Position numbers and translations under genes: made by a program | In this document: positions 1,916-4,850 of the stretch, piece by piece | How positions within the stretch are numbered: the first letter of the stretch is position 1 | Layout of the letters: each line of letters opens with the position of its first letter | Notes under the pieces: model-generated | Told to the model about the DNA's origin: nothing | The model's database searches: none | What the model saw: the letters and a program-made list of their open reading frames with translations, nothing else | Source: a virus | Lineage: Duplodnaviria > Heunggongvirae > Uroviricota > Caudoviricetes | DNA: 4,948 nucleotides | Virus record (IMG/VR): IMGVR_UViG_3300029650_000085 | Strand: one strand, 5' to 3'

Positions 1916-2341
1916 TTAGTGCATCACCACAGCATTCCCTGCCGGGCCGCCGCGATTCATCTGGTCATACAAAACAACCGCTGACGCAACAAAATCATCG
2001 ACATCCTTCACCAGCCGATCCCTCCGTTCGACGATCTCACGGTAATATTCAGAACTGTGGCTGCGCATACGGGCCACCAGCAAAGGCGGCATCGCCTTTT
2101 CGATCGCCGGTAACAGAGCCTGCATTTTTTCAACAGCATCAGGGGTGTCTTTATCCAGCCAACGGAAAATTTTCTGGGTATTACGGGCCAGGGCTTCCGG
2201 ATGGCTGTCGTCGTACAGTTCAGGGAACGTCATCCCCAGTTCGAAATAAGTCCGGGCTATTTCAGCTGCAGGAACTTTCTCACCATCAGGGTATGCCCAG
2301 GCATTCATCGCCATGCGGATGTGCTCATGTTTGATTTTCAT
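1916..2341 (-). CDS. ydaT: YdaT-family protein (CII-like; toxic when derepressed)
   Basis: 141-aa ORF with ATG at 2339-2341 and TAA at 1916-1918. N-terminus MKIKHEHIRMAMNAWA and length match my recollection of Rac YdaT. It overlaps the 3' end of the upstream Cro-like gene by 17 nt. Confidence 0.85.
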   Translation of the reverse strand: MKIKHEHIRMAMNAWAYPDGEKVPAAEIARTYFELGMTFPELYDDSHPEALARNTQKIFRWLDKDTPDAVEKMQALLPAIEKAMPPLLVARMRSHSSEYYREIVERRDRLVKDVDDFVASAVVLYDQMNRGGPAGNAVVMH

Positions 2342-2648
2342 GAATCATTTGCCTCTTGATGCTTCGGGTATGATCGTTTTCGTCATTTGGTTGCTTCATC
2401 GACATATTCTGCGAATAACATGACGAGCGTCGTAAGTATGTCCAATCAACATCAGGACGAAGTTCTTCACACAGGACACCACCTTTTGTTGCTCGTTCAA
2501 TCGCAGGACATCTCTCAGCAGGTAACTGACGTACACCTTTGATCCATTGATTTACGCTTGGAGGAGATACACCTAAAAGCCTAGCCATTGCTGATTGCCC
2601 ACCGACAACAGCACAAGCTCGTTTGAATGAATAGTTATCTTTTTTCAT
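2325..2648 (-). CDS. ydaS: YdaS-family Cro-like HTH DNA-binding protein
   Basis: The track ORF 2325..2669 starts at GTG; the first ATG (2646-2648) has GGAG 8 nt upstream and gives 107 aa (MKKDNYSFKRACAVVGGQSAMARLLGVSPPSVNQWIKGVRQLPAERCPAIERA...). HTH-like segment. Divergent from the repressor gene. Confidence 0.8.
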   Translation of the reverse strand: MKKDNYSFKRACAVVGGQSAMARLLGVSPPSVNQWIKGVRQLPAERCPAIERATKGGVLCEELRPDVDWTYLRRSSCYSQNMSMKQPNDENDHTRSIKRQMIHENQT

Positions 2649-2675
2649 CGAATGAACTCCAAAAAACACGCAACA

Positions 2676-2705
2676 ATATTAGGCTTAGCCTAATGAAATT
2701 GTCAA
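2676..2705 (-). promoter_or_regulatory. Leftward sigma70-type promoter for the ydaS-ydaT-ydaU-ydaV operon
   Basis: On the minus strand: -35 TTGACA (plus 2700-2705), 18-nt spacer, -10 TAATAT (plus 2676-2681). Both hexamers overlap operator palindromes. Predicted by eye only. Confidence 0.55.
2678..2694. promoter_or_regulatory. Operator palindrome ATTAGGC-TTA-GCCTAAT (7-bp perfect arms), overlapping the -10 of the leftward promoter
   Basis: Perfect dyad symmetry read directly from the sequence. Sits in the divergent repressor/cro-like intergenic region. Confidence 0.55.
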
Positions 2706-2721
2706 TAGGCTATGCCTAATA
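2699..2721. repeat. Left arm of a 23-bp perfect inverted repeat (ttgtcaataggctatgcctaata) bracketing the repressor gene
   Basis: Exact reverse complement of 3342-3364. Contains a -35 TTGACA (minus strand) and an operator half-palindrome. Confidence 0.9.
2704..2720. promoter_or_regulatory. Operator-like imperfect palindrome aATAGGC-TAT-GCCTAAt, overlapping the -35 of the leftward promoter
   Basis: Shares the TAGGC-N3-GCCTA core with the site at 2678-2694, with a 26-bp centre-to-centre spacing. Confidence 0.5.
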
Positions 2722-2772
2722 CATCGAGAGTAGGGATTGCCTAACGCGATGCGCATAGGAGACTATTAAGCA

Positions 2773-3249
2773 ATGCTTAGTGGTAAAGACTTAGGCCGAG
2801 CGATAGAGCAGGCCATTAACAAAAAAATTGCATCAGGAGCCGTCAAATCAAAGGCGGAAATCGCACGTCATTTCAAAGTCCAACCACCATCAATCCATGA
2901 CTGGATTAAGAAAGGTTCGATAAGTAAAGACAAACTTCCAGAACTATGGCGTTTCTTTTCTGATGTGGTTGGTCCAGAGCATTGGGGGCTTAACGAATAC
3001 CCCATACCAACCCCATCCACTTCAGATACAAAAAGTGAACTTTTAGACATAAACAGCCTTTATCAAGCCGCCTCTGATGAAAAAAAAGCAATTGTGGCTT
3101 TCATCTTATCTGGAAATGCTACGGAGCCTAGTTGGGTTGATTATGACGTTCGCGCCTACATTGCCGCAATGGAAATGAAGGTAGCTAACTATCTGAAAAA
3201 TCAAGAATCAAAACGGAAAAGCCAGAACATCACCAAGACAGGAACTTAA
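2773..3249 (+). CDS. racR: RacR-type prophage repressor (HTH)
   Basis: 158-aa ORF with ATG at 2773-2775 and TAA at 3247-3249. HTH-like segment SKAEIARHFKVQPPSIHDWIKKGSIS. Length and N-terminus match my recollection of Rac RacR. AGGAG at 2757-2761 lies 11 nt upstream. Divergent from the cro-like gene. Confidence 0.85.
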   Translation: MLSGKDLGRAIEQAINKKIASGAVKSKAEIARHFKVQPPSIHDWIKKGSISKDKLPELWRFFSDVVGPEHWGLNEYPIPTPSTSDTKSELLDINSLYQAASDEKKAIVAFILSGNATEPSWVDYDVRAYIAAMEMKVANYLKNQESKRKSQNITKTGT

Positions 3250-3341
3250 ACTTATATGGTCCGACGGGAAATTCCTAGTTCCCGTTAGTTAACTCCTACT
3301 ACCTCTCCCACAAACCATCACCTATTAGGTTGCGCCCAAAT

Positions 3342-3364
3342 TATTAGGCATAGCCTATTGACAA
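3342..3364. repeat. Right arm of the 23-bp perfect inverted repeat (tattaggcatagcctattgacaa)
   Basis: Exact reverse complement of 2699-2721. Carries the -35 TTGACA of the rightward promoter. Confidence 0.9.
3345..3361. promoter_or_regulatory. Operator-like palindrome ATTAGGC-ATA-GCCTAtt, overlapping the -35 of the rightward promoter
   Basis: Mirror copy of the 2704-2720 site. Further half-sites ATTAGG at 3324-3329 and 3368-3373. Confidence 0.45.
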
Positions 3365-3386
3365 GTAATTAGGCATTTCCTATAGT
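3358..3386 (+). promoter_or_regulatory. Rightward early promoter (TTGACA-N17-TATAGT) driving the small ORFs, DicF and the dicB-position ORF
   Basis: -35 TTGACA at 3358-3363, 17-nt spacer, -10 TATAGT at 3381-3386. The operator-like site 3368-3384 overlaps the spacer and -10. Predicted by eye only. Confidence 0.6.
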
Positions 3387-3567
3387 TTTCCCATACCAAC
3401 CCATCCCGTCCCACACAATACAGGGCAATACCTCGAGTTACCAGGCAGTGGTCAGGGGTTAAGTAGCCAGCCCGAGGCGTAAGAACATGACGGCAGGGTT
3501 CAACTTTAATAACTATGCAGCAGGTTTTTGTTCCGCTACCCCGGCGTTAAGGGGAAATGAGGTCAGC

Positions 3568-3720
3568 ATGGATACTATCGAGCTTGGCAACAACGAATCT
3601 CTGGTATGCGGCGTGTTTCCCAACCAGGACGGCACGTTTACCGCGATGACATATACCAGAAGCAAAACGTTTAAAACTGAAGCTGGCGCGCGTCGCTGGT
3701 TAACCAGAAACACTGACTGA
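3568..3720 (+). CDS. Small hypothetical protein (~50 aa), YdaF/YdfA-like by position
   Basis: ATG at 3568-3570 with GAGG 5 nt upstream; stop TGA at 3718-3720 overlaps the next ATG (ATGA). The track ORF could instead start at 3487 (77 aa, weaker RBS). The shorter form is chosen on RBS spacing and on the ~51-aa length I recall for the homologous small proteins. Confidence 0.5.
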   Translation: MDTIELGNNESLVCGVFPNQDGTFTAMTYTRSKTFKTEAGARRWLTRNTD

Positions 3721-4639: not shown

Positions 4640-4697
4640 TTTCTGGTGACGTTTGGCGGTATCAGTTTTACTCCGTGACTGCTCTGCCGCCCTTTTT
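4640..4697 (+). ncRNA. dicF: DicF-type small RNA (cell-division/ftsZ-targeting sRNA of the dicB operon)
   Basis: The sequence tttctggtgacgtttggcggtatcagttttactccgtgactgctctgccgccc (4640-4692, 53 nt) followed by TTTTT matches the DicF sequence as I remember it. It lies between upstream small ORFs and a downstream short ORF, as in the Qin dicB operon. Recalled, not searched. Confidence 0.75.
4655..4697 (+). terminator. Intrinsic terminator hairpin forming the DicF 3' end
   Basis: GGCGG (4655-4659) pairs with CCGCC (4687-4691), with internal CAGU/ACUG pairing, followed by a T5 tract at 4693-4697. Confidence 0.6.
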
Positions 4698-4700
4698 AAA

Positions 4701-4720
4701 GTGAATTTTGTGATGTGGTG
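4701..4720 (+). repeat. 5' arm of a long-range inverted repeat (potential 20-bp RNA duplex with 4831-4850)
   Basis: tgaattttgtgatg (4702-4715) is the exact reverse complement of catcacaaaattca (4836-4849). Flanking positions extend the pairing with G-U wobbles. Confidence 0.8.
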
Positions 4721-4830
4721 AATGCGGCTGAGCGCACGCGGAACAGTTAAAACCAAAAACAGTGTTATGGGTGGATTCTCTGTATCCGGCGTTAATTGTT
4801 AACTGGTTAACGTCACCTGGAGGCACCAGG

Positions 4831-4850
4831 CACTGCATCACAAAATTCAT
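4831..4850 (+). repeat. 3' arm of the long-range inverted repeat, ending 4 nt before the SD of the dicB-position ORF
   Basis: See the 4701-4720 arm. The GAGG Shine-Dalgarno at 4855-4858 is immediately downstream. Confidence 0.8.

Follow-up and report, generated by a model that had tools for sequence, protein, structure and literature searches.

The stretch of DNA analysed here (4,948 nucleotides, hereafter the window) contains a repressor gene bracketed by a perfect 23-bp inverted repeat, each arm of which carries a promoter element pointing away from the gene. This raises the question of what the repeat is for, and whether one repressor shuts both early promoters from either side of its own gene, as had been proposed in a sequence-only reading. 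We consider it very likely that the region serves a Rac-type lambdoid prophage as its immunity switch, in which RacR controls both outward early promoters. The system is real, functional and largely known. Its arrangement is ordinary, and its OR/PydaST half has already been characterised experimentally in E. coli K-12; the sole new point is the undescribed OL/PL.

Identity of the locus and of its repressor

The gene order in the region is ydaV-ydaU-ydaT-ydaS in leftward orientation, followed by rightward racR, a ydaF-like gene and, further on, dicF-dicB (Table 1). Annotated E. coli chromosomes match positions 2500-3600 of the window at 100% identity. The prophage in the identical genome differs from K-12 Rac in that it adjoins ompW, carries dicF-dicB, Q and RusA genes, and lacks ydaG; its counterpart of ydaT is annotated as toxin YdaT family. 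We refer to the leftward-pointing promoter of the window (- strand) as the PR equivalent and to the rightward-pointing one (+ strand) as the PL equivalent. The first gene from the leftward-pointing promoter is ydaS, with a Shine-Dalgarno GGAG at 2660..2657 and its ATG at 2648; it precedes racR in divergent orientation in 110 of the 113 related loci and was undetected in the other three. Pfam also identified replication genes of the HTH_36/DnaD_N (O-like) and IstB/DnaC-like types. The locus therefore shows the lambdoid order, with a divergent cro-like gene followed by cII-like and O/P-like replication genes, and with operator clusters on both sides of the repressor gene, each over an outward early promoter. 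The YdaT-box pattern showed no enrichment in the window, with 6 matches where 3.9 were expected, one of them a 1-mismatch site.

The 158-aa open reading frame at 2773-3249, previously read as a repressor gene, is borne out as racR. Its product matched the NCBIfam equivalog NF049929 over residues 1-145 with 244.6 bits (E 4.2e-73), above the curated cutoff of 200 bits, and the gene is annotated as racR in the genomes identical over 2500-3600. Its upstream region has operators of the form (T/A)TAGGC-N3-GCCTA(T/A), including one that spans the start codon, and the divergent ydaS-ydaT operon stands under TTGACA-N18-TAATAT, as in the RacR family. At its N-terminus (residues 1-73) RacR has a probable lambda/Xre-like HTH domain, which a disordered linker (~74-90) joins to a C-terminal domain of helices; in the AlphaFold model (pLDDT 81) five helices fall within residues 4-71 and the C-terminal half is all-helical. 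The top Foldseek matches listed from the PDB were mostly Xre-type HTH proteins (HipB, ClgR, the lambda cI N-terminal domain in 1lli/1rio/1lmb, and C proteins), and these were weak (best E 0.08, TM 0.3-0.37 on the full-length query); the C-terminal domain had no Foldseek match in the PDB. RacR had no Pfam family at E<=0.01 and only marginal HTH-like matches in PHROGs, and a PDB sequence search gave nothing meaningful. An S24 peptidase domain is absent from RacR by Pfam, and in the alignment such a domain was found only in the relatives P0101, P0102 and P0114.

Table 1. Genes, repeat arms, and predicted operators and promoters of the racR region (positions in the window)
Feature	Position	Strand	Description
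ydaT	1916..2341	-	lambda cII analogue, second gene of the PR operon; Pfam YdaT_toxin, E 2.8e-10
ydaS	2325..2648	-	cro analogue; Pfam YdaS_toxin, E 3.8e-30, and P22_Cro, E 1e-8
PR equivalent (PydaST)	2676..2705	-	-35 TTGACA 2705..2700, N18, -10 TAATAT 2681..2676; 10/12
OR1	2678..2694		ATTAGGC-TTA-GCCTAAT, 0/14 mismatches; over the PR -10
Left arm of perfect inverted repeat	2699..2721		TTGTCAATAGGCTATGCCTAATA; equals OR2 plus -35 hexamer
OR2	2704..2720		AATAGGC-TAT-GCCTAAT, 1/14 mismatch; 2-nt overlap with the PR -35
OR3	2729..2745		AGTAGGG-ATT-GCCTAAC, 3/14 mismatches; covers the -35 that the leaderless racR promoter is likely to use
GAGACT	2759..2764	+	positional equivalent of the K-12 PracR3 -10 (GAGAAT), by sequence comparison
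OR4	2765..2781		ATTAAGC-AAT-GCTTAGT; its centre is the first base of the racR start codon (2773); putative autorepression site
racR	2773..3249	+	158-aa repressor; NCBIfam NF049929 equivalog
OL3 (weak)	3324..3340		ATTAGGT-TGC-GCCCAAA, 3/14 mismatches; left half-site conserved, right degenerate
Right arm of perfect inverted repeat	3342..3364		TATTAGGCATAGCCTATTGACAA; equals OL2 plus -35 hexamer
OL2	3343..3359		ATTAGGC-ATA-GCCTATT, 1/14 mismatch; 2-nt overlap with the PL -35
PL equivalent	3358..3386	+	-35 TTGACA 3358-3363, N17, -10 TATAGT 3381-3386; 11/12
OL1	3368..3384		ATTAGGC-ATT-TCCTATA, core 1/10 mismatch, 3/14 overall; over the PL -10
PL-transcript untranslated leader	3387..3567	+	5' part C-rich and G-poor; unstructured, rut-like, with a presumed function
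ydaF-like DUF1391 gene	3568..3720	+	first annotated gene of the PL operon; Pfam DUF1391, E 9e-28

The inverted repeat is composed of operators and -35 hexamers

The sequence-only reading had described the two arms as exact reverse complements, each with an outward-facing TTGACA and a TAGGC-N3-GCCTA palindrome, and had placed two further palindromes over the -10 elements. Every part of this description held. The arms are 100% complementary over 23 nt and lie 620 nt apart, and the chance expectation for a perfect 23-nt inverted repeat in an 851-nt region is estimated at roughly 5e-9 (~3.6e5 position pairs x 4^-23). The sigma-70-like promoter scan of 2500-3600 returned exactly two strong matches, both pointing away from the gene. 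The window contains 8 matches to the motif TAGGCNNNGCCTA (<=2 mismatches), where 1.15 +/- 0.99 are expected and 0 of 200 shuffles reached that count, and seven of these matches flank racR (at 2680, 2706, 2731 and 2767 on one side, and at 3326, 3345 and 3370 on the other). The palindrome at the leftward -10 is perfect in both 7-nt arms and overlaps the hexamer by 4 nt, as does the site at the rightward -10. Three sites beyond those of the earlier reading were also seen, namely OR3, OR4 and the weak OL3.

Perfect 23-bp inverted repeats around a 620-bp segment superficially resemble IS ends or hin/fim-type switches, and could be taken for the ends of a mobile or invertible segment carrying racR, either a MITE/IS-like element or a recombinase-flipped switch. 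We regard this as extremely improbable. The window encodes no transposase, invertase or recombinase, and there is no target-site duplication at the flanks (AGCCTAATGAAA and GTAATTAGGCAT). The segment has a single orientation across the 113 related loci, as judged by ydaS in 110 and by ydaF in 71, in all of which ydaF lies downstream of racR in the same orientation. The arms consist of operator half-sites found at five more places close by, and the distance between arms varies from 579 to 2204 bp with unrelated genes inserted. In the absence of target-site duplication, transposase, recombinase and inverted orientation, both the IS/MITE element and the invertible switch were rejected.

The repeat is instead perfect because an O2 operator and a -35 hexamer stand on both sides of racR, with the operator spacer also matching. 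Nearly every base of the repeat is probably functionally constrained, and the match of the 3-nt spacer in this allele would be coincidental. Allele comparison indicates that perfection of the 23-bp identity is not required and is allele-specific. The exact shared block spans 12-23 nt across other Rac-type alleles. It is 21-23 nt in many E. coli alleles, which, together with the reported RacR octamers (PMC11014345) and the mere 639 bp between arm centres, could suggest that the identity is itself functional, for example by providing matched affinities for a symmetric RacR-mediated OL-OR loop. This seems unlikely to us, since in other Rac-type alleles, among them that of K-12, spacer or flank differences shorten the block to 12-15 nt, the OR2 of three-operator relatives (GGCAATTCCTATTGAC) is clearly unlike OL2, and the half-site consensus and -35 hexamer account for all non-spacer positions of the repeat. 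By sequence, OR3 is homologous to that OR2 of the three-operator relatives. In E. coli Rac-type phages, copying of the OL2/-35 unit into OR may have given rise to the four-operator OR, which would explain the perfect repeat.

The left side corresponds to the characterised K-12 switch

On the left, the proposal that the repressor shuts the early promoter is upheld by experiments with the K-12 allele of RacR, which is 90% identical. Krishnamurthi 2017 (PMC5700373) saw three complexes by EMSA and also reported ChIP and a PydaS-gfp reporter that was active only when racR was missing. The work of Wisniewska/Mruk 2022-2025 (PMC9638921, PMC11014345, PMC11879457) added a DNase I footprint, in which the lowest RacR concentration protected the ydaST promoter region first, and a half-site logo of ATTAGGC (PMC9638921). 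The K-12 PydaST start for TTGACA/TAATAT was established by primer extension and -10 mutagenesis (PMC9638921); the predicted PR start in the window is at ~2669-2670. Size-exclusion chromatography revealed RacR octamers, and four inverted repeats were described at the locus (PMC11014345), one of which is the start-codon operator (PMC9638921) that is the counterpart of OR4.

The sequence-only reading had found no good sigma-70 promoter for the repressor gene and had anticipated a near-leaderless mRNA. This agrees with K-12, where the main racR promoter, PracR3, was mapped and mutated and gives a leaderless transcript (PMC9638921). In the window, PracR3 has GAGACT as its -10 where K-12 has GAGAAT, and the -10 of PracR2 has not been retained. 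By its position, GAGACT would start racR at or next to the ATG and yield a leaderless mRNA. Use of this promoter in the present allele is uncertain because GAGACT is a poorer -10 than the K-12 hexamer.

A conserved, predicted operator-promoter cassette lies downstream of racR

No description of OL/PL was found in the searchable literature, nor any experiment on RacR binding to OL or a mapped PL start in the literature searched. The predicted PL start is at ~3393-3394, which corresponds to ~1,419,619 (minus strand) in K-12. The cassette is also present downstream of K-12 racR. Among 12 relatives fetched by protein similarity alone, with the cassette sought within a 2.5-kb flank, it was found in 9 (from Escherichia, Mixta, Proteus and Achromobacter), at 91 bp to 2.3 kb after the stop codon, and was absent from that flank in 3. 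Phages vB_EcoS-683R6 and KpF5 carry it as well. Alignment of relatives whose RacR is 57-90% identical showed diverged flanks around an invariant O2/-35/O1 block, and the conservation footprint over 54 distinct PL cassettes agreed with this block. Our survey of viral contigs was seeded with the cassette pattern, so that the independent evidence there is confined to the second cassette and the presence of O1. The left half-site of OL3 is kept in K-12 and E. ruysiae, and is not kept in Mixta or L008.

The cassette also accompanies a protein that shares only the DNA-binding domain of RacR. In the S24 (LexA/CI-type) relatives P0101, P0102 and P0114 this domain is 70-86% identical to RacR residues 1-73, with 40 invariant columns, whereas the C-terminal half is an S24 peptidase (PF00717), presumably RecA-cleavable, in place of the helical RacR domain of no detectable family. 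The OR triplet and the OL2/OL1 pair both recur at the P0102 locus, so that a PL cassette also stands beside an S24-fused relative. Repressor evolution is modular here: the RacR DNA-binding domain and the operator-promoter cassette travel jointly through prophages of Gamma- and Betaproteobacteria, while the C-terminal domain is swapped between an S24 peptidase and a RacR-type helical domain.

Published expression data bear on the same point. In RNA-seq with RacR lowered, ydaF, ydaG, kilR, ydaE, racC and ydaC rose 40-70-fold and xisR/intR ~100-fold, and racR mRNA itself fell. Since the left operon rises while racR mRNA falls, read-through from the racR promoter is excluded and a RacR-repressed promoter downstream of racR is required. 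Published models ascribe kilR silencing to Rho-dependent termination of racR-promoter read-through, with PL unmentioned. A racR-less deletion from sieB to ydaU, which removes PL and keeps kilR, is viable.

It could be argued that the right cassette is conserved without being a direct control point, and that the rise upon loss of RacR is indirect, through YdaS/YdaT, excision or lost Rho termination. The literature searched yielded no direct OL/PL binding or start-site data to set against this; YdaS promotes excision, YdaT is a transcription factor, and Rho termination has been reported as a protection against kil expression. However, OL2 is identical to OR2, a site protected by RacR in K-12, and OL2 and OL1 cover the -35 and -10 of a promoter matching the consensus at 11 of 12 positions. 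Moreover, in different genera the cassette has stayed with the RacR DNA-binding domain even though the distance and the intervening genes vary, a retention that is hard to explain without RacR binding. We accordingly give the indirect explanation little credence. For the right arm, the notion that one repressor shuts both early promoters is thus strongly supported by conservation and published derepression, and we infer that RacR binds OL1-3 and directly represses PL.

Downstream of PL, the leader is conserved with K-12, has a GC skew of ~-0.5 at 3380-3439, and is less structured than shuffled controls (folding z-score +1.71). Rfam returned no match in 3387-3570, and on both grounds a riboswitch or otherwise structured leader was rejected. 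No intrinsic terminator was found between racR and OL.

Proposed mechanism and its consequences

We propose that RacR, an HTH repressor, is read from a weak, probably leaderless promoter and that its dimers bind 17-bp sites with the consensus ATTAGGC-N3-GCCTAAT, of which OR1 to OR4 lie between racR and the divergent ydaS-ydaT, and OL3 to OL1 just downstream of racR. The strongest two sites on each side form a fixed cassette, O2-TTGACA-N5/6-O1, in which the end of O2 reaches into the -35 and the last 4 nt of O1 are shared with the -10 (TAATAT or TATAGT), so that bound RacR would occlude RNA polymerase at both outward promoters. PR (PydaST) would drive ydaS, ydaT and the replication genes, and PL the operon running from ydaF through dicF-dicB, exonuclease and xis-int genes. 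OR3 and OR4, over the racR promoter and start codon, would provide negative autoregulation.

The proposal that OL/PL is a second RacR operator region with a near-consensus promoter, taken together with its corollaries of looping, a read-through block and OR copying, is put forward tentatively, as a possibility somewhat short of an even chance. If it is true, expression of kilR, recET and xis-int on a fall in RacR would come from PL and not from racR read-through. RacR, reportedly an octamer, could bridge OL and OR across ~640 bp, looping out its own gene and sharpening both repression and autoregulation, and OL-bound RacR with the flanking C-rich, rut-like stretches could block racR transcripts from entering the lethal left operon. 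On our main reading, the well-studied RacR/YdaS/YdaT "toxin-repressor" module is one half of a complete lambda-style OL/OR switch. Current accounts explain the silencing of kilR, recET and int-xis by the racR-ydaS intergenic region and Rho termination alone, and probably leave out a strong promoter under RacR control directly downstream of racR. The practical value of this is modest.

Comparison with known systems

The closest known system is the K-12 Rac racR-ydaS-ydaT switch (PMC5700373, PMC9638921, PMC11014345, PMC11879457), with a repressor of the same family. Both have the half-site ATTAGGC, four operators at -93/-67/-42/-6 from the ATG, PydaST as TTGACA-N18-TAATAT, an operator over the start codon, and the downstream OL2/OL1/PL cassette. 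The OR2 spacer is ATA here and ACA in K-12, and the repeat is therefore perfect in the present allele. The published K-12 work concerns the racR-ydaS intergenic region only, and the downstream OL/PL falls outside it.

We also compared the region with the annotated OL1-3/OR1-3 of lambda. As with cI, multipartite operator clusters stand on both sides of the repressor gene, each with an early promoter that faces outward, and the geometry is alike, with a -35 that shares sequence with the end of O2 and a -10 that takes in the final 4 nt of O1. O1 and O2 are ~24-26 bp apart, and the O2-O3 spacing is shorter on the left side. A divergent cro analogue is followed by a cII analogue and replication genes, and an operator lies over the repressor promoter for autoregulation. 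The lambda repressor mRNA is leaderless, as for K-12 racR. In contrast to lambda, RacR lacks an S24 autocleavage domain, OR has four sites instead of three, and the operators lie ~640-690 bp apart rather than ~2.4 kb, there being no rex genes in between. YdaS, the cro analogue, does not repress racR according to PMC9638921. After PL, no N homologue was recognised, and the first genes are DUF1391 and a PHROG family of unknown function (N proteins are hard to detect by sequence), and no nut site was identified there. The longest exact block shared by PL and PR is 23 nt here and 12 nt in lambda. The earlier characterisation of this layout as more symmetric than that of lambda was nevertheless overstated, as the lambda geometry is the same and the 23-bp perfection belongs to this allele.

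The PaaR2/YdaS/YdaT system of CP-933P (Jurenas 2021, PMC8630535) is likewise a lambdoid immunity region. Its repressor gene is leaderless, a ydaS-ydaT operon diverges from it, and its repeats occur at a PL promoter further downstream as well as in the intergenic region. It differs in having a repressor that is unrelated to RacR and shares a transcript with the paaA2-parE2 toxin-antitoxin pair, and in its operators, which are 18-bp palindromes of the GTTTAGTAA type (PMC8630535).

Identity of the locus and its prophage

The region from 2500 to 3600 matched several E. coli chromosomes with 100% identity, and in these the 158-aa ORF (2773-3249) is named racR, and its product scored above the NCBIfam RacR equivalog cutoff (244.6 bits versus 200). 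The prophage in the annotated genome adjoins ompW and has Q, RusA, exonuclease, xis and int genes. This gene content and the ompW-side position identify it as a lambdoid prophage with Rac-type immunity, distinct from K-12 Rac itself. The prophage is a mosaic, its left operon carrying a Qin-type dicF-dicB division-inhibition module. An STnc100-like match at 4704-4844 was below threshold (34 bits versus a 47-bit cutoff). Contig L005 (JARKOR010000130.1, 5.2 kb), assigned to 'Candidatus Nanosynbacter sp.' by binning, bears a K-12-like Rac immunity region with a RacR 90% identical to that of the window, as is the K-12 protein; this contig is almost certainly mis-binned Enterobacterial sequence.

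Operators and promoters flanking racR

The perfect 23-nt inverted repeat noticed earlier around racR (arms 2699-2721 and 3342-3364) showed 100% complementarity across a gap of 620 nt. A consensus scan of 2500-3600 gave exactly two promoter-like sites, the two outward-facing promoters proposed by the sequence-only reading, and every other feature it described also lay where it had been placed. The window held 8 matches to the palindrome TAGGC-N3-GCCTA (up to two mismatches) where 1.15 were expected, and 0 of 200 shuffles reached 8; seven matches (2680, 2706, 2731, 2767, 3326, 3345 and 3370) flank the ORF. The four operators listed previously are all present, but the actual count is seven, with OR3, OR4 and OL3 additional.

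Features of the racR region and its neighbours
Feature	Position	Strand	Remarks
DnaC/IstB-like ATPase gene		minus	neighbour
O-like HTH protein gene		minus	neighbour
ydaT		minus	neighbour
ydaS		minus	neighbour; YdaS_toxin/P22_Cro
PR-side promoter	2705..2676	minus	TTGACA-N18-TAATAT; consensus scan
OR1	2678-2694
OR2	2704-2720
OR3	2729-2745
OR4	2765-2781		centre on start codon
OL3	3324-3340
OL2	3343-3359
PL-side promoter	3358..3386	plus	TTGACA-N17-TATAGT; consensus scan
OL1	3368-3384
DUF1391 (ydaF-like) gene, unknown genes, DicF RNA, dicB	downstream of racR	plus
DicF sRNA	4641-4692	plus	Rfam RF00039, 76.7 bits; directly upstream of dicB (start 4867)

The inverted repeats and operators form a real and functional feature that is not a product of chance, and its original interpretation was correct. 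The layout is a canonical lambdoid OL/OR arrangement in the RacR/YdaS/YdaT system, of which the right half (the OR/PR side) has already been dissected experimentally. A mobile element or invertible segment was rejected: the repeat was accompanied by no transposase or recombinase in the window and by no target duplication, and across 113 loci every ydaS or ydaF that could be recognised lay in the non-inverted arrangement.

The published left-arm data concern the K-12 allele, whose RacR is 90% identical to that of the window. RacR formed three shifted complexes with the 123-bp racR-ydaS intergenic DNA, this region was enriched in RacR ChIP, and a PydaS-gfp reporter was silenced by RacR (PMC5700373). 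Primer extension gave a single ydaS start site (-35 TTGACA, -10 TAATAT), and DNase I footprints defined a half-site ATTAGGC and operators (T/A)TAGGC-N3-GCCTA(T/A), of which one covers the ATG; racR had three weak promoters, the strongest of which, PracR3, produces a leaderless mRNA (PMC9638921). This agrees with the sequence-only reading, which found no good racR promoter and guessed a near-leaderless mRNA. The equivalent of the PracR3 -10 in the window is GAGACT (2759-2764), versus GAGAAT in K-12. At the K-12 OR, PydaST is covered first and repressed by RacR, and racR's own promoters are also covered. Four inverted repeats and, by size-exclusion chromatography, RacR octamers were subsequently reported (PMC11014345), and later work describes YdaS as a Cro analogue and YdaT as a CII analogue (PMC11879457). 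The site TTGATTTTCATGAATCAT (2331-2348), at the junction of the ydaS stop and ydaT start, has one mismatch to the published YdaT-box TTGATT-N6-AATCAA; the pattern showed no other enrichment across the window.

A conserved OL/PL cassette downstream of racR

The searchable literature gave us no description of any operator or promoter lying downstream of racR. The OL/PL cassette (O2-TTGACA-N5/6-O1 plus a -10) is apparently undescribed and the sole new element of the system, with implications for control of kilR, recET and int-xis. K-12 carries the same cassette sequence downstream of racR: ATTAGGCATAGCCTATTGACAATCAATTAGGCATTACCTATAGT. Twelve loci were collected by RacR protein similarity alone (57-90% identity, or N-domain only); nine of these, including loci from Mixta, Proteus and the betaproteobacterium Achromobacter, had, on the coding strand, TAGGC-N3-GCCTATTGAC-N5/6-TTAGGC-N3-GCCTA and a -10, at between 91 bp and 2.3 kb past the stop codon. 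The cassette was also present in two deposited phages, Escherichia vB_EcoS-683R6 and Klebsiella KpF5, in the latter 1.4 kb downstream of the repressor gene with a DUF450 gene between. When the regions following racR were aligned among relatives with 57-90% identical RacR, the O2/-35/O1 block was invariant and its flanks divergent, in agreement with a column-wise footprint of 54 distinct PL cassettes. A pattern scan of viral contigs detected more than 120 loci, with a second outward-facing copy 579-2204 bp away in 85, and both cassettes in 92 of 113 loci with racR as reference; because the cassette itself was the search pattern, independent evidence is limited to the second copy and the O1/-10 part.

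When RacR is lowered, ydaF, ydaG, kilR, ydaE, racC and ydaC increase 40-70-fold and xisR/intR about 100-fold, while racR mRNA decreases (PMC6765115, PMC11014345, bioRxiv 2026.09.06.749655). Since the left operon rises as racR mRNA falls, a RacR-repressed promoter must lie between racR and ydaG, where PL is located. From comparison and these indirect published experiments, we infer that RacR binds OL and directly represses PL. The left operon might conceivably be derepressed indirectly rather than through RacR at OL, but this is hard to square with the position of OL2 over a consensus promoter and its identity to a footprinted site.

A 13-bp exact direct repeat, CCCATACCAACCC, is found in racR linker codons (3001-3013) and directly past the PL -10 (3390-3402), both copies within C-rich, G-poor stretches (GC skew about -0.5). 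C-rich, unstructured stretches span 3260-3349 and 3380-3439, and the PL leader was less structured than shuffled controls (z +1.71). The CCCATACCAACCC stretches are candidate Rho-loading (rut) sites and may have a connection with the 'trac' terminator published for racR. The central PL leader (3420-3500) is nearly identical to that of K-12 (L002 3520-3600, minus strand), more so than racR itself. An ATG at 3487 begins an 18-codon sORF in K-12 and an in-frame run into ydaF in the window; as nucleotides are kept in different reading frames, leader conservation is probably not protein-coding.

Origin of the identical arms

The 23 bp comprise O2 (17 bp) and the -35 hexamer, with a 2-nt overlap. 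Nearly every position is set by the half-site consensus or TTGACA, the 3-nt spacer and outer bases being free. Other alleles vary at these bases (spacer ACA in K-12 versus ATA in the window), and, within a set of 67 distinct cassette pairs, the exact shared block of the Rac-type alleles (626-630 bp spacing) ranges from 12 to 23 nt. In view of this variation, exact identity of the arms is unlikely to be required for function. With functional bases fixed and free positions varying, strong constraint, perhaps aided by copying, has made the repeat perfect by accident in this allele.

Window 2699-2745 was compared with the upstream regions of related loci L007-L013. Three OR operators (-66, -41, -6) are present in relatives of about 60% identity, and the OR2 of these relatives (GGCAATTCCTATTGAC) bears the PR -35 and is unlike OL2. 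E. coli Rac-type loci have four (-93, -67, -42, -6); their OR3 is the old OR2 minus the -35, and the extra unit of about 26 bp (OR2 + -35), about 26 bp further out, is identical to OL2 + -35. The extra unit may thus have arisen by duplication or gene conversion of an OL2-type unit from OL into OR.

Proposed mechanism and comparison with lambda

Half-site centres are 10 bp apart within operators, so that a RacR dimer would contact one helix face, and on either side of racR, O1 and O2 are spaced 25-26 bp apart. RacR at O2 and O1 would occlude the -35 and -10 of PR and PL, with PL directly repressed from OL, and autorepression would act via OR3 (centre -36) and OR4 (centre +1), numbered from the leaderless start. 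More speculatively, octamers may loop OL to OR over 639-690 bp, and OL-bound RacR and the C-rich stretches may limit racR read-through and leaky PL transcripts, which would fit the Rho-dependent terminator of the racR region (PMC4150792).

RacR had no Pfam match and did not classify as an S24 protein. Its C-terminal half was modelled as all-helical, and its N-terminal fold weakly resembled Xre/lambda cI-NTD (Foldseek). Residues 1-73 share 70-86% identity with the DNA-binding domains of S24-peptidase repressors P0101, P0102 and P0114, with 40 invariant columns in the alignment of this domain. The P0102 locus, an S24-fusion prophage, uses RacR-type OR and OL sites (L136 2935-3008 and 4473-4510), indicating that the C-terminal domain has been swapped on a fixed DNA-binding/operator module.

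In KpF5 (L138, 2977-4374) and Achromobacter loci L011 and L013, additional genes spanning 1.4-2.3 kb separate the repressor gene from OL. The KpF5 DUF450 gene thus occupies the position of rex between cI and OL; by analogy with rexAB, this slot is likely to serve exclusion genes or cargo expressed in the lysogen.

Set directly against the annotated lambda operators, the region showed the same geometry: the -35 overlaps the end of O2, the -10 overlaps the last 4 nt of O1, O2-O3 spacing is shorter on the left, and the repressor mRNA is leaderless. However, the exact shared block is 23 nt in the window and 12 nt in lambda, there are four OR sites rather than three, the operators are separated by about 0.65 kb rather than about 2.4 kb, and lambda CI is S24/LexA-type whereas RacR is not. 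The region works like the lambda switch, with a DNA-binding module common to CI-type repressors in a repressor that is not itself S24.
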